A DNA stretch of 63,840 bases, counting the filler, from Phoronis australis (lineage: Eukaryota; Animalia; Phoronida), in NCBI GenBank assembly GCA_002633005.1. It is 9 parts of 9 records of this genome, joined end to end, with 100 filler letters (N's around TTAATTAATTAA, not from the genome) between each part and the next. Parts side by side here need not be neighbours in the genome. Positions count along the whole stretch, not along the records: positions 9,163 to 21,035 come from NMRA01000948.1; 8 more parts are not named here. One strand, given 5' to 3'. Below, in pieces: positions 9,163-56,036 of the stretch. Position 1 is the first letter of the stretch, and every line of letters begins with the position of its first letter. The position numbers and the translations under genes are program-made. The notes beneath the pieces were generated by a model that was not told the origin of the DNA, searched no databases, and saw nothing but the letters and a program-made list of their open reading frames with translations.

Positions 9163-9546
9163 TTTGTAGAAAGGCTGTCATAGGCTACAACTACGTCACA
9201 GAGCGTAAATTTGATGAATCCTAGCTTCCGATTTTACCCGTTTGGGAAACCGGGTTTCAACTGCCGTAGGCTCACTACAATAAGCGTCCCCTCCCCGTGA
9301 AATGAATTTTTCTAAGTGTTTGTTTGAGCCAATACAGTATACAGCTTTCCACCAAGGCTAGGTGATGCAAGACATTATTCTTTGTTGCATTATAGTAACT
9401 GGTCTTGGCTAATTATCATTTTATGACCTGGTCATCCATTCAGCCATTCACGCATGCTGACTCACAATAGAAGCCTGATAAGAGTGAAGGTGGATAAATG
9501 CGGTGTTCCTACAGTTTCTTGTTTTAGTGGATGTGTTCACGACATG
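9163..9546 (+). repeat. Dispersed repeat, near-identical to ~16982-17519
   Basis: Direct match from tttgtaga.aggctgtcataggctacaa to gtgttcacgacatg. Confidence 0.85.
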
Positions 9547-14760: not shown

Positions 14761-17700
14761 GCAACTAGGAACGACTTGTGTAGATGCATGACTATTTGTA
14801 TTATGAATGGCTAAATAAACAATCTATGTATCTAATATATAAAAATTCGTCATGATCTGGAAAACTACGAAGAAAAAGCAAAATACTAGAATAACATAGC
14901 ATATTTACACGTATATATATAAATCTGCGTATTCATCAGAATATACTGATATATAAGTAATATTTTTGACGCCCAGGTGTAATGTCAACCAATTGAGCCC
15001 TTTCTTATAGGCGTATCCGGGGGGGGGGTCAAGGAAGTCCGGAACCCCCCTTTCCCTTGATTTTTTTAACATCATATCTAGAATTTTCAAATTGTTGAAT
15101 TGGACCCCCTTTTTAAAAAATCTTTGATCCGACTCCCTGTTTCAAAGAAATCCTCGATCTACTCCTGTTTCTGGTCCTAACGCTGCATCATTGTACATTA
15201 TATTTTTTCGTAAAAACATTAGAAGAACTTGCAGACTACTGCTGCTTGCGCCGACACGACGCTTATACGCCATCGTGTATGAACTTCAACTATTAGAATC
15301 CACAACTTTACAACGTAACCAAAGTCGGTTACAGACGACAGAGCGCCTGAACACGAAGTGGAAAACCATAGACTATGGTGGAACCAGTTATAATGTTGCC
15401 GTGCTTAGCCTGGCTTCCGTATTCCATAAAAAACATCAAAAGAATTTACGTCATGAGAATATAAACGGCCACCAACTGTTGCGTGGTATAATCTCGGTAA
15501 GAAAATGATAATTTTGACAAGTCAAAAAATCCATTTTTCTGATATAACCATGGCAACTACGTCGGACTTGTGGTGTTAAATCCAGTCATAATTCTATTGA
15601 AATTCGTTGAAACATTTGTGCCAAAGTTTCGAACTTACCGTAGAACGCAATAAACTACCGACGACGCTGATATATGGTATACACTAAACATGTGGTTATG
15701 ACATCAATGAAAGAAATCAGCAGGAAGAAAAAAGCGCACTCCGCACCTTGGCAGGCCCATCCACTCAGCAAAAATATTTAGTTGCCAATGAAAGCTTATT
15801 CCCCAACGACACTCTTTCAGAAATTTCCACAAAATAATATAATCACGATTGTTTGAGTTCAAATGTCACAATTGAATGACACAGAATTTCACATTTATGA
15901 ACAGAATGATAATAAATACAACCAGGGCTTGGATAAATTAACCAAAAATGTAGCTGCATATGACCCAGTTTCGACTCTGAGATGTCTACATGATTCGCTT
16001 TGATATTTAACAACAGATGAAAATTGTTTCAAAATCGGAGAAGTATCCCTGAAGATGCGTACGATGTTGAAAACCATAATTATTTGCCTGTGTTCACATT
16101 TCAAAAATCCTAATTCAAGTTGAAAAACAGAATTGTCTGACCACAGATCCAGAATCTAGTCAATGTCTACAGAGTGCGGCATCTAAGCCCGTTTTCTGTC
16201 CATGTAGGGAGATTTTGAGACCACTATTTAACACGACAATTAGTTGGTATGGACTTCTTCTCAGTAGATGAGAAGTACTTTTCTGGTTTCAGTTATTGGA
16301 GACTATGCTCGGCGCACAAAATGACACTCCACGTTAAACTCACGGAAGAGCCTGACTCGGATCTCAAGCGACAGCAATCTGCCAATTCTTTCATTTCCGT
16401 GTTGACAATGGAACAATTTGAGACTAAATTCATAACGGTATGCATGAATAGGACTATAAACAAAGCGTTATTTTTGTGATGAAAAATTCCGCACACGACG
16501 CTGAGTATGACTGCAAAATAAGCACCGCATATCGTTAGTGTTAAAGGCCTATGGTCCGAGTTATAGAAGAAAAAAACCTCTTAACGCCGTTTAAGCCGGT
16601 TTTTTGGTGTGACATGGNATCGTCGATGACCCGCACACGCACGCTCACTCACTCTCATACGCAGACGACCTTCAAAACAAACGTCACGTGACAATAACAT
16701 GTGTGTCCATTCTCGTGTTGTGGAGTACGATGTAGCGCACATTTGGACTTAATCGCAATTAATCTGGACTCCACATGAACTTTAAAAATTGTAAAACATC
16801 AGGAAGATTTCAGGTAATTTGTTGAGTCGAAAGTATATTTTTATTCAAGAGTACAAGTTTTCCTATTGACGATCGCGATTCAGCGACGCATCAGTCAGCA
16901 AGTTTTCGCCCTGTGATGAGCACAATTTTTTGAAAAATTATCGTAATTTAATAACGGAAGTTGATAGCAATGCACCACAATTTTGTAGACAGGCTGTCAT
17001 AGGCTACAAATACGTCACAGAGCGTAAATTTTACGAATCCTAGCTTCCGATTTTAGCCGTTTGGGAAACCGGGTTTCAACTGCCGTAGGCTCACTACAAT
17101 AAGCGTACCCTCCCCGTGAAATGAATTTTTCTAAGCGTTTGTTTGAGCCAATACAGTATACAGCTTTCCACCAAGGCTAGGTAANAAACCGGGTTTCAAC
17201 TGCCGTAGGCTCACTACAATAAGCGTCCCCTCCCCGTGAAATGAATTTTTCTAAGCGTTTGCTTGAGCCAATACAGTATACAGCTTTCCACCAAGGCTAG
17301 GTAATGCAAGACATTATTCTTTGTTTCGTTATAGTAACTGGTCTTGGCTAATTATCATTTTATGGCCTGGTCATCCATTCAGCCAAAAGTATTTCCAGAG
17401 GTGGCTTACCAGCCAATTATTCACGCATGCTGACTCACAATAGAAGCCTGATAAGAGTGAAGGTGGATAAATGCGGTGTTCCTACAGTTTCTTGTTTTAG
17501 TGGTTGTGTTCACGACATGCGCGAGGAAAGCGAGTATATCGTGTTTTTTTACTTCCTCGAGAGTCCGAAATGCTCATGGTAGTGAAAAATGAAATGTACG
17601 CTGTAAATAGCAAGTATGAGGCCGTAAAACATCTCCGTGTCTGTGGCCTGCAGACGACGTCGACAGTGCCTCACGAATGCCGGTTTACCAATTAACTCCA

Positions 17701-18169
17701 TACGTTCCGTTTTCTGAGCTTGTTCACGGCGCCTCTCTAGTATTTCTGAGCCAAAGTAATGTGCACGTGATAATGTTGGTGAATTAGCCACGAAACAGCA
17801 AATCTACTTACTCGTCGGGGCCGCGAATTCACTCGGGTTCCGCTTTGGCCACAGCACCTTCAGGGCAGAAGTTGTACATTGACAATCATTATTTGAGTAA
17901 TGTAAACGTAAATAAAGATTCCCTTAACACTTAGCCGTGGGATGGAAATCGAGTTGTTTCACAACAATTTCTACCAGCAAACACTAAATTAGCATGAGCT
18001 CACACGGCCTCGGTGTCCCCTCAATTAGTTTTATTGCACCTAAAGCCGGTAACGCAGTGATTTATTCATTGCTGCCTTCTCAAATCATTTGCACTCACGA
18101 ACACTCCAAAGGCATTACAAATTGCATCTAATGAGACAGACGCCCATTTCAAGCACGTGTACCTATGAC

Positions 18170-18211
18170 TATAAATTGCAAGATACTCTACACGTGGGTA
18201 CCATTTTCGAA
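18170..18211 (+). promoter_or_regulatory. Core promoter of Merlin transposase: TATA box and putative cap site
   Basis: TATAAAT at 18170-18176, CCATTT at 18201-18206 (~31 nt downstream), ATG at 18212. Confidence 0.55.
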
Positions 18212-19114
18212 ATGTCTCTTGCTGAAATAGTCGAGTACACGCGTGACGAAGACGCAGCGCTTCAGTTTTTGAGAGCTCACAACGCCATCAGACGCCAGCC
18301 ACCCCAGTGTGGGGTGTGCCCTCGTTTGATGACCGAGGTGCGTGGTGGCTCAGGAGGAGGTGGGAAGATCTGGCGCTGCCCGAGGCACAAGGCTCAGAAG
18401 GTGTCACTGCGAGACGACTCCTTCTGGTCCAAGTCCAGGTTGACACTGCAGCTATTGGTACAGCTTGTCTGGGCTTGGGCGTTCAAGCAACCGATAGCGC
18501 TTGCGGAGGAGATGCTGGGAATAGACCGGACAGTGATAATGACTTGGTACGGCTACCTCCGAGACGCATGCTCCACACAACTCGTGAACAACCCTATACG
18601 GATTGGCGGCCCCGGAGTCATCGTGCAAATTGATGAGTCGTTGATGGCCAGAAGAAAGAACAACGTAGGCCATGTGGTTCAGCAACGATGGGTGTTTGGA
18701 GGATACTGCCCCGCACAGAACGTTGAATTTCTGCAGTTTGTGCCGAACAGGAACGCCAATACACTTCTCCCCATCATACAACAGTTCATCTTGCCCGGCT
18801 CCATCATTCACAGCGACATGTGGGCTGCCTACAACGGTATTGCCAACCTCCCCGTTGTTCCGCCGTACACCCACCAGACGGTCAACCATACCATGAACTT
18901 CGTTGATCCACAGACTGGCGCACACACCAACCATGTGGAGTGTTACTGGAAGAACGCGAAGATGAGGTTTAAGAGCATGTGTGGTGTCCTCCCTGACATG
19001 TTGGGTGCGCATCTAGACGAGTTCATGTGGCGAGAACGTTACGCGGGCAACAGCGGTCGACAGGCGTTTTTCACGATAGTCGACCACATAGCACTGTGGT
19101 ACCCCACTCCTTGA
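18212..19114 (+). CDS. Merlin-superfamily (IS1595/ISXO2-like DDE) transposase, 300 aa, intact and intronless
   Basis: Zn-ribbon CGVC...CPRH, then GGPGVIVQIDES (D1), WVFGG, ILPGSIIHSDMWAAY (D2), VNH..NFVDP.TGAHTNHVECYW (E) and HLDEFMWR. First ATG after the TATA box is 18212 (the track's start at 18089 is TTG). Confidence 0.93.
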   Translation: MSLAEIVEYTRDEDAALQFLRAHNAIRRQPPQCGVCPRLMTEVRGGSGGGGKIWRCPRHKAQKVSLRDDSFWSKSRLTLQLLVQLVWAWAFKQPIALAEEMLGIDRTVIMTWYGYLRDACSTQLVNNPIRIGGPGVIVQIDESLMARRKNNVGHVVQQRWVFGGYCPAQNVEFLQFVPNRNANTLLPIIQQFILPGSIIHSDMWAAYNGIANLPVVPPYTHQTVNHTMNFVDPQTGAHTNHVECYWKNAKMRFKSMCGVLPDMLGAHLDEFMWRERYAGNSGRQAFFTIVDHIALWYPTP

Positions 19115-19125
19115 GTACCATAAAC

Positions 19126-19151
19126 CCAACGGCCCTTTTAAGGGCCACTCA
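19126..19151 (+). terminator. Histone-type 3' stem-loop (SLBP-binding consensus) ending the transposase gene
   Basis: CCAAC-GGCCCT-TTTA-AGGGCC-ACTCA. The 6-bp stem/4-nt loop lies at 19131-19146, 16 nt after the TGA. Confidence 0.8.
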
Positions 19152-19869
19152 TTACTTCCCAATTGGGCTGTTTCACTTGAAATTTTCTACAACGGTAGGC
19201 CTACAAGGCGCGCCTTATACTTAACAAAATCAAAATTTTTGCACAATTACTATTTTATAATAAATTGTATATCATTACTAGGCCTACAGTGTAATTGGTA
19301 CAATGGTATCACAAGAATCTATTATATAAAATGCATCGTTTGCACAAACTCCGTTTCCCTCGCTCCACTACAAACCTTCGTTAAGCGCGTTTCGGCACCG
19401 CCTTGGTCCCAGGTATTGCACCGGCCCCCTATTTGGATTCGAGGTGTTCTATTTTTTTCTCGCGGGACGTTTTTTCGAGGACGCGGAGGGAGGGTGGTCA
19501 GTTTCATACTGGCCTTGGTGACGTCAGTCGGTCGTCTCAAAAGGCCTGGTTGACGTCACTCCGTCGGCTTAATTTCACTCCCTCCGGCTTCTAATTCATC
19601 GGGCCTTTCGTCGCCAAAATTAATGATGCCTCATTAAAAAATTTTTTACTCTTCCTTGAGTAAACTAAATTATTTACCCGGATGTTGAAAAAGAGGCGTT
19701 CTTCAGTTATTCTGCTGCTAAAATTCAGATGCGTTCTTTGGGCGCCATTGCGTCGCCTATGGAGCCAATTTGCATATTCTTCAATCAACTGTGGAGGTTC
19801 CGTACATGTCATAACAATCGGAAGTGGTTTCATTTCGTTACAAGTTTTTACTATTTTAATACCAAAAAA

Positions 19870-31059: not shown

Positions 31060-31761
31060 CTAGTTTCTTCTAATTGAGTCGTTTCCCCATCTACACAGTT
31101 TGTAGTAATGGTGAAATATAAGTTGTACGCCAAACGGCAGGACAGTTCCCCGAGAAACACCATATCTCAGGAATTTGAACCCCATATTTTCGTACAACCG
31201 CCTCGCACCGTCGTTTGTAGGCATAACTCCAAGCCACATTCCTATAAATCCATTCTGACTGGCATACTCGAGAGCTGTTGTCACCAATCTTTGAGCAATT
31301 TGTCGCCTCCGAAATTCTTTCAACACGCCGATGCATACAAGTTGTGACCATCCTGGCATATCTTTGGATCTCTCGAAAACAGCAAATCCAACAATACTTT
31401 CCCCGCTGAGGGCTATCCAACTTTCCGTGTAGTCGCTATTTAGCATGTTTAACTGTTTATTCCACGTTTTGCTGACATAACGAAAACCAATATATGAACT
31501 GCGAATAAAAATCAAGGTTGTAAGCCCCAGTGCCACTGCCATTCCGTACGTCCATCCTAGCTGGAACACTGCTACGATGAACGTTGTTACAACGTAAAGC
31601 CAAGTCACCGGATGTTTCCAAACATCTCGGATGAATTGATGGAAGTAAATTTCCTTCATTCGATGATAGTTAAGTTCAGAAACCACTTTCACGTCCTCAC
31701 AACTCCTCAATGGTCTAATTAGGATTTCGCATTTCTGCAACTTGTTATTGCGGTTTTTCAT
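31060..31761 (-). CDS. GNAT N-acetyltransferase, NAT8/Camello-like, single-exon ORF of 233 aa
   Basis: N-terminal IRP, a hydrophobic membrane segment, WIA...IVGF, motif A V..EFRRRQIA..LV and motif B N.GARRLYE.MGF. Confidence 0.85.
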   Translation of the reverse strand: MKNRNNKLQKCEILIRPLRSCEDVKVVSELNYHRMKEIYFHQFIRDVWKHPVTWLYVVTTFIVAVFQLGWTYGMAVALGLTTLIFIRSSYIGFRYVSKTWNKQLNMLNSDYTESWIALSGESIVGFAVFERSKDMPGWSQLVCIGVLKEFRRRQIAQRLVTTALEYASQNGFIGMWLGVMPTNDGARRLYENMGFKFLRYGVSRGTVLPFGVQLIFHHYYKLCRWGNDSIRRN

Positions 31762-33164
31762 TTCAGCGGGTTGTATACAACACTAACGTAGTGAAGAGCT
31801 TCGACTACACTTAAAACATGAGCAACACGCGTGTGTCCCCTAGGTCGAGGCCAATGTTATCGTATGCGTTGTGTTATATGCTTTGTTTCTATTACCCGTA
31901 CTCTAAGTGGTGACGTTGTAGTCAACAACAAAACCAGACTATGATCTCTGGCGGTCTTGGAAGGTGATTTCGACTTATTGTCCCTGCACATATTGAATGC
32001 GATCAACAGGGTCAACTAACTGACAAAAAGTGTGTGGATGCTGAAGCCCCGTGTGTGCTCTATGACTATGCAGTTCCATTCGGAGACTACACAACATTAC
32101 TTGGTAAGTTTTTAGCAATCAGTTTCTATCAACATCGTTCGGTGATGTTATCCCCACCAGTTACCCCCACCGAATAACAGTTTTATTGAGTGGAACTAAG
32201 TGTTTCTTTTTGGAAACTCACCCGATGCCGGGTAAGCTAGCAACACGTATTCATATTGTCCTGGGTGGGAGTGCTCCCAAAATAAGAGGTGTATGGTACG
32301 TGATGCACAGAAGTCAAGAGTGACTTTTCACAGCAGTTTCTCTTCAAAACTATGCTGTTTCCAATAAAATTCTCTAGATGAGTGAGTTTCCTTATTTTAT
32401 AGTGGACCCCACCCCCAGGACCACCAGCTCAGTTATCGAATTAACATGAATAAGCCTTAATTCAGTAAATGTCGTAACATTGCATTGGAAAAAATTGACA
32501 CCTAGAATGAATTTTACTTGTTGAGATCAGAAGCACATTTTAAGTGTCGTGAAAAATACACATTGTTAAATCACTTTTAGCCTGTTTCACATATTTTAAT
32601 TCAGATATTAAATAAGACTTGGGTACAAAGGTTATTAGTTTCTACACATAAACATGAAGATGAAATGTCAAGTATGTTCTGCCTTACAAAAGTAGTTTTG
32701 TCTTGTCTTTTCTTTTACAATTTGCTAATATTTCTATTCTGTTACAGGCAAGAAAAAACAACTGAAACCAACCGCCTGACCATCTATTTCACCGTTGGAC
32801 AAAGTGAAAAGCAATCCTTCAGCAATAACCTGAGAGAATTGAACGTAATTCAGAAATTCAGCACCTGATATGCCTGATTATGGACTCCCTCGCAATGTTG
32901 TTTCTTTCTGTGCTTTTTCAGTTTGCCATTTGTTTTTAAATACACTGATAATTGTTTATTCTCGAATCTTGTGCATAGCAGATTCTTATCCAGCTAGCTA
33001 CAATTGAAAACATACAATAAGACAATCGATGCAGTCACTGAATGTCATTTCCCCATAATCTGTACCAAATTGAAAAGTTTTTACCAATAGTATAAAGCCT
33101 TTCTTCTGAAAGGAAAATTTAATGTCACTCAGCTTTTGGCTTTCATTTCACTGGGTTCTAGTTT

Positions 33165-49339: not shown

Positions 49340-49928
49340 CATGACATTTTAATTGAATGTCTCCATACATGTGAGGATAAGAAAGGAAAGGCTGTGAAGC
49401 GAACCCTGCCGGGGCGCCATCTACCTCCATCATACATCGCAACGTCTTAGGCCTATAGTCCAATGGTTGAAAACATGTAATAGTCATATAAGCTTCTTCG
49501 AATTGAGTCGTTTCTCCAGCTATAAAGTTTGGTAGTAACGACGAAATATGAACTGTACACCAAACGGTAGCACAGTTCCTCGAGAAACACCATGTTTCAG
49601 GAATTTGAAACTTATCTTTTCGTACAACCGCCTCGCACGGTCGTTTGTAGCCAAAACTGCAAGACACATTCCTGTAAATCCTTTCTGATTGGTACATTCG
49701 AGAGCTTTTGTCATTAAACGTTGAGCAATTCTTCGCCTCCGAAATTCTTTCAAGATGCCAATGCACACAAGTTTTGACCATCCGGGCATATCTCTGTGTT
49801 TCCCCAAAACAGCAAATCCAACAATACTTTCCCCGCTGAGGGCTATCCAACTTTCCGTGTAGTCGCTATTTAGCGTGTTTAACTGATCATTCCACGTTTT
49901 GCTGACATAACGAAAACCAATATATGAA
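49340..49928 (-). pseudogene. 5'-truncated duplicate of the GNAT gene (3' two-thirds of the CDS plus 3' flank)
   Basis: SYIGFRYVSKTWN.QLN.LNSDYTESWIALSGESIVGFAV is nearly identical to 31060-31761. Homology stops abruptly at ~49928, and a +1 frameshift lies near the C-terminus. Confidence 0.8.
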
Positions 49929-52079
49929 CAAAGGTGCATGAATAGTGTTTTCTTATTTCCAGTTCGAATACCTGTAATTTCCAAATAAAAACTAATTTCC
50001 GAGATTTCGAGTTGTTTTAAGCTTGACGCAATCACCTCTGTCGTAACCAGAAGTATTCAACAGGGGGCCAAATCGGGGGAAATTGTTAACGGACGGCAAC
50101 CTGCGGCACTTCGCTATTAACGAGGAAACAAACGCAAAATATATTGAGTTTCGACCGGGCAAGTCTTATTTGGCAGTGCCAGTCTCTGATATCCCAAACT
50201 GTCTGAGTAAAACAATGGGTTGACTTGACATTTATACAACCCGTAGTATCGAAGTCATGAAGTGGCATAGAACGTGACTAAATTGCATTATTCACAGTCA
50301 CGTGGTTCTTTTCCACTAAAACAGTGGTCAAACTGTTTACCAGGTATTTTTACTGTTTTTTTTGTCGTAAAAATTGTTGAGTTTCTGCTGATGTCAAAGC
50401 ATTTTACCCTTATTTTTAAATTTCAAAAAAGTTCTGCCAACTGCTAGCCAGATTTGTCCCGCTAGGCAAAGCACGTCTCCTCCTAGTGGGTACGGCAAAA
50501 CATAGACGTAACAAATGGAAAATGTGACCTTTGTCCTTATATGTAAAAAAACAACGTCGAGTCACTATATAGCAGCAACCAATCCGACTTTTTGAACGCC
50601 GCCATTTTTTCTAGAACTTCTCGAAATTTTCAAAGTGAATAACTCTCACGTTAGCATCCCCAAGAAATAAATTCGACACGATCTGTTTAAAAGCAGGAAA
50701 ATTTACGAGATTTTGCGTCCCACTGATGGGCCTTTTATGCTGATGAAATTTGAGTGAGTCAGTAGGTAGTGTGTCAGTCAATTTGCTTGTTTAGTTAGGC
50801 GTTATTTTGACTTATGAACCCAGATTTACGTAGCGCCGTAAATTACTAAACACTTCTAACATTCCTTACCAAGTGATCATGGAGCCCCAGAGTCTCGTAA
50901 TCATTGTCACTTCCCGGGCGGCGGAGTGATGGGTAGAACCGTTGTTGAAAAACATTGATTAATCCTAACATAATTTGGTAAAAAATTCAAGTGATCAGTT
51001 AAATTACCCCTCCCCCGGATACCTGAATCGCCGCCGGGGAAACAGCTCCAAACTTTTGGAAGTGATATGTGACTAATACCGGGGTTTTCCGTCGATAGGC
51101 CTAAGCCCACCCGATGAAACGCCCATTGGCGTTTATTCAGAAAATTATGCCGAATAAATGCCCATGGGCGTTTATTTGGTGCTACAACTTCTGGTGTCAA
51201 GTATCCAGATAGTGGGGCGTTGACGCGGAAAATTTCCTCTTAAAAGCCCACTCTCAGTCAACTTTTCGTCACAAGTTCAGTTTGATGGAGAAATTATCAT
51301 TTTTAGAAACGAACAAGGTGTTAGCGAACTGTGTACTTGTTAACATAAAATTTAAAATCACAGTTTTAGGTAAAAAATGTCAAAGTCAGCAAAACTATAA
51401 CTTTCCGTTTACACGCCCCCCTTTTCCGAATAAACGCCCATTTTGTGTTACTAAAACGCCTGAAAATTTTCATTTTCCGAACACACGCCCATGGGCATTT
51501 CTGTTTTTATTTATGCATAGACGGATTTGGGGGGGCAGGGAGCCCGGTTCCCCCCCCCCCTTGGCTGCCGCAAAAAATCAAACACCAAGAGCGTAGGGAA
51601 ATGCTGAGTTTATTAATTAAACCCGGTAATTGAAATTATACGGATGAAACAAGATTTAAATGCGTGCAGTTTTAGTGTTGGGGGGAGGTGCTCAGATCCA
51701 ATTTCAAGTGTCAAATTCGGAACACGGCGCAATCGTAACGGAGCTATGGCTAAGTGCAGGCTCTCCCGCGATATCCCAGGCGACCAGCAGCGGCGCTGCG
51801 CACTACGACTCCGTTTCCGTCGTCTGCGCCACTGTGCAATGAAGAAAATTAATTCATTTTTTAACGAAAATGGAACCTGAGTGAAAAAAATGATAAAACA
51901 GAAGCTGCTGCTAATGTCAATTTTAATCGAAGCCTTAGTGAATCACTCAGAAACTCTGAATTCTCTCTTTGTCAAACCTCATCTTAAGACGATTTCCCAA
52001 AGCAATCCCGTCATTATTGCCAACACTAAAAACGGATTTGGTCTTTTGGCCAATTGAAGACTATTTTAAATACAACAAA

Positions 52080-52843: not shown

Positions 52844-52910
52844 TGAGTGGCCCTTAAAAGGGCCGTTGGTTGTAGGTATAGCGTGAAATGGTTCTTAAAA
52901 GAACCGTTGA
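52844..52910 (-). terminator. Two tandem histone-type 3' stem-loops
   Basis: Minus strand: CAAC-GGTTCT-TTTA-AGAACC (52905-52890), then CCAAC-GGCCCT-TTTA-AGGGCC-ACTCA (52864-52849), followed by purine-rich CAGAAGAACTG. Confidence 0.75.
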
Positions 52911-53029
52911 ATAATTCAACATAAATCACNNNNNNNNNNNNNNNNNNNNNNNNNNNNNNNNNNNNNNNNNNNNTTAATTAATTAANNNNNNNNNNNNNNN
53001 NNNNNNNNNNNNNNNNNNNNNNNNNNNNN

Positions 53030-55229: not shown

Positions 55230-55756
55230 ATCAGATTTCCAGCGCCTCATGCGCTGAATCATCGGTTCAGGGACGCCACGGCTGGCCGCTGATGTGGCCG
55301 CGCCAATGCGAAAGCTATGTGACTTATAAGACTTTGTGTCGAGGTCTACAAAGGAAAGCACTTTATTAGTTAACATGGAGTTGAATCAGGAACGTGTAAC
55401 CGGTGATCCACTGAGGTGTTGGAACAGGGGGCCTGGAGAGGGCAGAAAAGTAGAAAAGCACAAGGTTAGGGCAGCTACAGGGCAATGGGGGAGATTGAAT
55501 GGACGGAATCGTAAGTGAGACTGGTTCCGAGCTGTGCTTGAAAGTACGCATAGTGATGACCAACGAATCGCCAGAGGCTGGGAAGACGACGTCGCTGACC
55601 GATATGACATGGGAGGAGAGCGAGGAGGTGGCCGTGATTTCACGAACTCTGAAGAAGGTATGGAAGGCTAGGAGGAACAGGGCACATGCGAGAACCGAGT
55701 CGGCAAAAAACCGAGTGCAGACGGGCAGGCGTCAAACAAGCGGTGAAGCAAAGCTG
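55230..55756 (-). mobile_element. DIRS-group (Ngaro/PAT-like) tyrosine recombinase remnant, cut by spacer
   Basis: LAFH.FFRV.E, ITMR.FKH, CPVAAL, GPLF....GSPVTR and YKSHSFRIGAAT.AA..G....IQRM.RWKSD, with stops and frameshifts. Confidence 0.88.
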
Positions 55757-56036
55757 NNNNNNNNNNNNNNNNNNNNNNNNNNNNNNNNNNNNNNNNNNNN
55801 TTAATTAATTAANNNNNNNNNNNNNNNNNNNNNNNNNNNNNNNNNNNNNNNNNNNNAGGGAACGCTTATCTGCGGTTATAGTTGAGTGATAACAGCACAA
55901 TATACCTGCTACTGTATACATCGTTCTTGCTTAGCGCCGCTTTAGTCCATGTGAATGGTTTTGTTTTACCTCTGTGTAGGCTTATTGTTTGTTCATTATA
56001 AAGGATTTTCCTAACTGTTGGCCCCACTATCACCCA

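Follow-up and report, generated by a model that had tools for sequence, protein, structure and literature searches.

Histone-type stem-loops behind transposase genes: a Merlin-type gene of Phoronis australis and its possible use of the histone mRNA 3'-end pathway

The 3' end of metazoan replication-dependent histone genes is marked by a stem-loop (Rfam RF00032) and a histone downstream element (HDE), which work together with SLBP and the U7 snRNP. Histone mRNAs are apparently the sole mRNAs processed by U7, according to one account (PMC5054213). A recent survey of the pathway places the stem-loop at a median of 30 nt from the stop codon, and in the part of its text that is available neither 'transpos' nor 'non-histone' occurs (bioRxiv 10.64898/2026.10.14.759114). 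Merlin elements form a superfamily of DNA transposons related to IS1016/IS1595, with terminal inverted repeats (TIRs) of 24-462 bp that start with GG and target site duplications (TSDs) of 8-9 bp; the word 'histone' is absent from the main text of their survey, as far as that text is accessible (PMC8101967). U7 snRNA has been linked to transposable elements in a different way, since it represses HERV1/LTR12 via HDE-like motifs (bioRxiv 10.1101/2023.08.25.554787). Our literature search for histone-type 3' ends on transposase genes, which covered titles and the beginnings of abstracts mostly outside subscription journals, found none. Such ends may, reportedly, have been described for EnSpm/CACTA elements.

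Here we analyzed a stretch of 63,840 nucleotides from Phoronis australis (assembly GCA_002633005.1), referred to below as the window. A sequence-only reading of it had pointed to a Merlin transposase gene with a histone mRNA stem-loop at its end, and had proposed that its mRNA may be processed as a histone mRNA.

The transposase gene and the signals behind it

The window indeed contains the intact, intronless DDE transposase gene of 300 aa that had been claimed (Table 1). An uninterrupted reading frame spans 18131-19114 and has an in-frame ATG at 18131, while the second Met of the frame, at 18212, corresponds to the start in the homologues and gives the 300-aa product; the stop codon is at 19112-19114. 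A single ORF and its end-to-end alignment with homologues show the absence of introns. The protein matches Pfam DDE_Tnp_IS1595 (PF12762) with an E-value of 2.1e-14 and 54.3 bits (cut-off 27), and its DDE triad is complete (D141, D202, E243). Among 31 aligned sequences, E243 is invariant, and D141 and D202 are at least 90% conserved. A protein search with 645 candidates found 205 related to the window transposase at E <=0.001, the best being 53-55% identical, and the named relatives among the 120 matches listed belong to molluscs, crustaceans, a sea urchin, Hydra and a rotifer. A representative-protein search returned 522 family proteins at E 1e-30, indicating a large family.

Two further observations concern the protein itself. 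Its N-terminus (18212-18390) contains conserved C33/C36/C56/H59, a possible zinc ribbon, for which Pfam reported no match; Merlins are described as devoid of the IS1595 zinc finger. Proteins P0121 and P0122 (1,600-1,750 aa) each contain 11-14 stretches matching the window transposase.

Table 1. Features of the window around the transposase gene and at the second hairpin site
Feature	Position	Strand	Basis and remarks
High-copy repeat adjoining the 5' region of the gene	17600..18141	.	Read overlay; 17600 is the edge of the stretch examined
TATAAA, candidate TATA box, 36 nt upstream of the conserved start codon	18170..18175	+	Sequence; putative function
Merlin-type DDE transposase ORF, intronless, 300 aa	18212..19114	+	ORF, Pfam, homologue alignment
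5' flank CCAAC of the stem-loop	19126..19130	+	Sequence, Rfam match
Histone-type stem-loop GGCCCT-TTTA-AGGGCC, 6-bp stem, TTTA loop	19131..19146	+	Pattern, Rfam, folding
ACTCA tail, predicted cleavage after 19151	19147..19151	+	Sequence; cleavage site predicted from the known pathway
Candidate histone downstream element (HDE)	19161..19178	+	Pairing to the Rfam U7 consensus at 19165-19171 and 19174-19178
AATAAA, perhaps an alternative poly(A) signal or a chance occurrence	19259..19264	+	Sequence; 113 nt behind the hairpin
Identical 16-nt hairpin, similar flanks, candidate HDE	52849..52864	-	Histone3 34.8 bits, over the cut-off of 34
Second, tandem histone-type hairpin GGTTCT-TTTA-AGAACC	52890..52905	-	Pattern, folding

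The label 'Merlin' fits the type of protein but not the ends of this copy. We searched for TIRs and a TSD around it, between the flanking N gaps, and found none: the best of 27,874 GG/CC pairs matched at 16 of 24 positions and had no TSD. Neither GG-starting TIRs of 24-462 bp nor a TSD of 8-9 bp being present, the window copy was not filed as a complete Merlin element, and without recognisable ends it is probably immobile itself. It has the look of an insertion that was truncated, or of a gene whose ends were lost. Reads of other copies of the upstream repeat diverge from the window sequence at 18141, and the usual continuation of this repeat, sought elsewhere within the window, was not found. 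Farther upstream, a repeat at 16982-17519 recurs at 9163-9546, and there is a 120-nt tandem duplication at 17066-17304.

An intact ORF without TIRs or TSD would also be expected if the Merlin transposase had been domesticated, worked for the host and relied on a histone end for cell-cycle control, and Merlin-derived ORFs without ends are considered possibly domesticated in the Merlin survey (PMC8101967). We regard domestication as highly improbable here. On its left side the gene adjoins a repeat to which it is unrelated, as a truncated insertion would; reads at 90-95% identity and a form with a 32-nt deletion suggest several copies; and there are complete mobile relatives with the same signal, as described below.

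The hairpin that had been claimed 16 nt past the stop codon, with the flanks CCAAC and ACTCA, is present. It has the histone-type features of a 6-bp stem and 4-nt loop, a G-C pair at position 2, a U at loop position 3 and A/C flanks, at 16 nt from the stop. A search with the Rfam Histone3 model (RF00032), which the sequence-only reading had proposed, matched the locus at 19126-19171 with 32.3 bits and an E-value of 8.1e-7, but under the gathering score of 34. The hairpin pattern occurs twice in the window versus 0.02 times expected, and two matches were reached in 0 of 100 shuffles; the folding z-score for 19121-19156 is -3.16. We also searched viral contigs for an exact match of the hairpin and for relatives of the transposase, and found neither there.

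The downstream element, initially called a weak HDE match only, proved to be stronger. Between positions 19165-19178 and the 5' end of the Rfam U7 consensus, which is not the RNA of this species, 7+5 = 12 pairs form at -17.0 kcal/mol; a duplex as good was obtained in 0 of 500 shuffles and for 3 of 2,934 random 24-mers of the window. However, the element has AATTGG in place of the purine-rich AAAGAG core, and even three true histone genes, taken from other hosts, gave poor pairing with the Rfam U7 consensus. For these reasons the complementarity is suggestive only as evidence for a histone-type end. A U7 search across five assemblies gave one weak match (19.8 bits), which was not accepted as a U7 gene.

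The assertion that no AATAAA follows within a few hundred bases has to be corrected, as one is located at 19259. It may be there by chance, because 0.23 are expected per 300 nt at the window frequency. It may also mean that the histone-type signal, real as it is, is a relic or secondary at this locus: the end-less copy could be silent, or polyadenylated at 19259, or dual-ended like H2A.X, for which dual 3' ends are described (PMC7807067). The non-canonical HDE core and the missing TIRs and TSD would agree with such a relic or dual end, as would the RNA reads. We read about one fifth of each of three RNA runs from the same species, of unspecified library type. Depth per bin over the ORF was low (1.5-8.5, 0-6.0 and 0-5.7 in the three runs), with reads in both orientations. 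It was 0.4-1.3 at 19162-19232 and 0-0.6 in the bin of the AATAAA, versus up to 8.5 over the ORF, which argues against polyadenylation at 19259, although other copies may diverge there. Moreover, the ORF, the catalytic triad, the hairpin and the U7 complement are all intact, and we consider a relic or dual end unlikely. No pile of read ends was found at 19151 in these three runs, which are of thin depth and unspecified library type.

Reads over the hairpin mostly had the flank of the second hairpin site at 52.8 kb (35 of 37, 33 of 39 and 4 of 5 in the three runs), so most of them come from other loci. That site resembles the end of the transposase gene over 46 nt at 87% identity, with a distal CACTTGA common to both, and its duplex with the Rfam U7 consensus has -11.7 kcal/mol, to which 7 of 500 shuffles came up. 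The position of a gene ahead of these hairpins falls in an N gap. Since tandem hairpins are also present in L004, G003:C18, L068 and L077, the tandem hairpins and candidate HDE at 52849-52929 (minus strand) are probably the gene end of another mobile element.

Elsewhere in the window, two related frames of the NAT8/camello-like GNAT acetyltransferase type lie at 31063-31782 and 49523-50056, both on the minus strand; a NAT8-like gene of the window resembles eukaryotic clusters, mostly chordate. Fragments at 55366-55804 (minus strand) resemble what we take to be a tyrosine-recombinase gene.

The stem-loop among Merlin relatives

By protein search, relatives of the transposase were located at three metagenome loci, at 16 genome-contig loci and at further places in five of those assemblies. 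We kept 22 distinct loci after dropping 13 repeat-place rows, L019/L061, L060 and L066 (match short of the 3' end). Record titles, introns and histone genes indicate that many of these loci are evidently animal DNA inside symbiont assemblies. As a separate observation, the prokaryote reference assemblies G001, G003, G005, G007 and G009 (loci L004, L010, L014, L015 and L019) include sizeable animal-like contigs with introns and transposons, and in two of them with histone genes.

A fully paired sense-strand hairpin at the gene end or within 147 nt of it was found in 4 of the 22 relatives (L004, L006, L007 and L014), whose catalytic part is 47-52% identical to that of the window transposase. L004 has two tandem hairpins, 43 and 96 nt past the stop, and the distance is 45 nt in L006 and 147 nt in L007. 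At L014 the transposase frame continues across the hairpin, which occupies the final codons of this frame as it is read and stands 4 nt past the stop of another frame. L069, a fifth hairpin-bearing Merlin, was fetched via its hairpin and is left out of this count. TIRs of the Merlin type are present in L001, L002, L004 and L007. L004 is a complete Merlin, with GG-starting TIRs of 121 bp, a TSD of 8 bp and both hairpins inside the element, and the TIRs of L007 measure 64 bp. Apparent GT-AG introns occur together with the histone-type 3' end in L004, L006, L007 and L069.

The six Merlin hairpins, rows selected for having a hairpin, are paired in 36 of 36 cells, and both sides have changed in 3 of the 6 pairs. 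Of 500 shuffles, none came up to their pairing or their covariation score, but 92 had as many pairs changed on both sides. A strict motif, composed after these hairpins had been seen, was sought on both strands of the loci that had not been retrieved through an RNA family (545,884 bases); it occurs five times in all, each time (5/5) at one of these Merlin gene ends. As a negative control we used bacterial-type IS1595 loci, obtained with the alignment from two sets of related bacterial genomes (122 and 201); the hairpin was found at 0 of these 54 loci, many of which are near-copies. The Histone3 scores of L004, L006 and L069 are 22.6-27.6 bits, and among 121 other genomes, all from one bacterial family, 17 have matches of 21.5-29.4 bits, so that these low-scoring hairpins take their weight from position and strand.

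Some of the signals resemble those of histone genes in detail. The 16-nt hairpin of L014 is identical to that of an H3 gene in the same assembly (G009), whereas its downstream letters are unlike the HDE of the histones of its host. L007 has CAAAAGATTC downstream, which is similar to CAAAAGGTTC of the H3 gene from another assembly, G003; L006, too, is similar to this G003 gene in its downstream letters.

Conservation in other copies of the family, on which the sequence-only reading had let its proposal depend, is therefore partial: the four hairpin-bearing relatives have stems that changed and still pair, but the other 18 of 22 have no hairpin. Among the latter are the three nearest relatives with available DNA (L001-L003, 65-67% identical in the catalytic part). 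A relaxed scan of ten hairpin-negative relatives returned no convincing degenerate hairpin. A tree built from 47 catalytic segments requires four changes of the hairpin label, three of them forced by supported branches. The signal is thus patchy in its spread and seems to have been gained or lost several times.

Histone-type ends behind other transposons

Assembly G005 has 18 Histone3 matches, and 16 of them lie behind transposon-type genes. Twelve hairpins are behind Tc1/mariner-like genes or have a flank in common with them, two of these being confirmed by Pfam DDE_3. Two are behind the PIF1 helicase of a Helitron-type gene (one confirmed), and two belong to a convergent, Harbinger-like pair (L155 4223-6461), formed by a DDE_Tnp_4 nuclease and a second ORF with one sense-strand hairpin each. 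The Tc1/mariner family, with about a dozen copies in one assembly, is found at L156 (G005:C137:33000-38500), L024, L037 and other loci. Its transposase ends in GGCTTTTTTAAAAGCC, with the downstream element CAGAGAGAG, and one copy is enclosed by TIRs of 30 bp. In the Helitron-type region L157 4547-9406, the end of the PIF1 helicase ORF precedes the histone hairpin by 121 nt, and the downstream element is the same as in the Tc1 copies.

G003 gave nine Histone3 matches, among them one H3 gene and six tandem hairpins behind an unnamed ORF. At L022, L025, L028, L032, L034 and L036 (G003:C18), a repeated ORF is followed by several tandem histone hairpins; having no Pfam match, the ORF was not assigned to a superfamily. 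The eight matches in G009 include five histone genes, known from their translations, and the Merlin L014. A histone gene search across five assemblies gave a match in G003 only, and none in G005. Another frame, in L067 (G009:C156) at 155-514 on the minus strand, encodes 120 aa without a Pfam match and is followed by a hairpin 21 nt on; it is a candidate non-histone client. That hairpin has the best score of G009 (43.4 bits), with the histone HDE of the host downstream.

We also weighed the idea that the hairpin of the window gene is a neutral passenger, that is, a fragment of some histone gene's 3' end, or a small repeat with a hairpin in it, which came to lie behind the ORF and has no role in processing. 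The near-identical 46-nt piece at 52.8 kb, the RNA reads that mostly derive from other loci and the nearest relatives without hairpin would be in line with it. However, sense-strand hairpins stand at gene ends in four transposon superfamilies, each gene of the convergent pair has its own, the stems have changed and remained paired, and the downstream element is kept at the right spacing. A passenger is thus quite improbable.

Judged by sequence comparison, the signal is real, conserved in part of the Merlin family and common to other transposon superfamilies. Since the same signal recurs in distant relatives and in other DNA transposons, it is likely that these elements make use of the histone mRNA pathway of their hosts. 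A broader reading, to which we give an even chance, is that unrelated DNA transposons of invertebrates (Merlin, Tc1/mariner, PIF/Harbinger and Helitron) repeatedly took the stem-loop and HDE of the host, and that transposase mRNAs may form a large group of SLBP and U7 clients besides the histone mRNAs.

Proposed processing and comparison with known systems

We propose that the transposase pre-mRNA of the window is probably processed in the histone manner. SLBP would bind the hairpin at 19131-19146, the U7 snRNP would pair at 19165-19178, and CPSF73 would cut after about 19151, releasing an mRNA without a poly(A) tail. The position of the cut is presumably that of the histone pathway. By a further step, the transposase mRNA might then track histone mRNA, with accumulation in S phase and storage in oocytes for the cleavage divisions. 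Cut-and-paste elements gain copies at replication, when they jump ahead of the fork and the gap is repaired from the sister chromatid. The benefit of a histone-type end could thus be that the transposase is expressed during S phase, and in oocytes or cleavage embryos, at the time when copies can be gained. The original suggestion of a histone-type 3' end is strengthened by the hairpins in distant Merlins, with their changed but paired stems, sense orientation and place within complete elements, and by those in other superfamilies, and is weakened by the 18 of 22 relatives that do without.

If the broader reading is true, transposition would be timed to S phase and to oocyte and cleavage stages, and transcripts of DNA transposons would be hidden from poly(A) RNA-seq, so that their activity in these animals would be underestimated. 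Transposase clients would overturn the histone-only view of the SLBP/U7 pathway and would give a testable mechanism that ties the timing of cut-and-paste transposition to replication. The intron-bearing relatives would serve as natural test cases for histone-type processing of intron-containing genes.

Taken together, the window gene is like a metazoan replication-dependent histone gene in its 6-bp/4-nt stem-loop with the G-C pair 2 and loop U3, in the closeness of this stem-loop to the stop, in a stretch that may be complementary to U7 and in its intronless ORF. It differs from histone genes in that the client is a transposase and that its HDE is devoid of the purine-rich core; several Merlin relatives differ further by introns, tandem hairpins and distances of up to 147 nt. 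With the Merlin superfamily the window copy shares a DDE_Tnp_IS1595 domain as well as the catalytic triad, but it has no detectable TIR or TSD. Repression of HERV1/LTR12 likewise links U7 to transposable elements through HDE-like sequence. There, the motifs are near transcript starts and U7 inhibits transcription, whereas in the window it is the 3' end of a gene from a DNA transposon that has a stem-loop and a candidate HDE.
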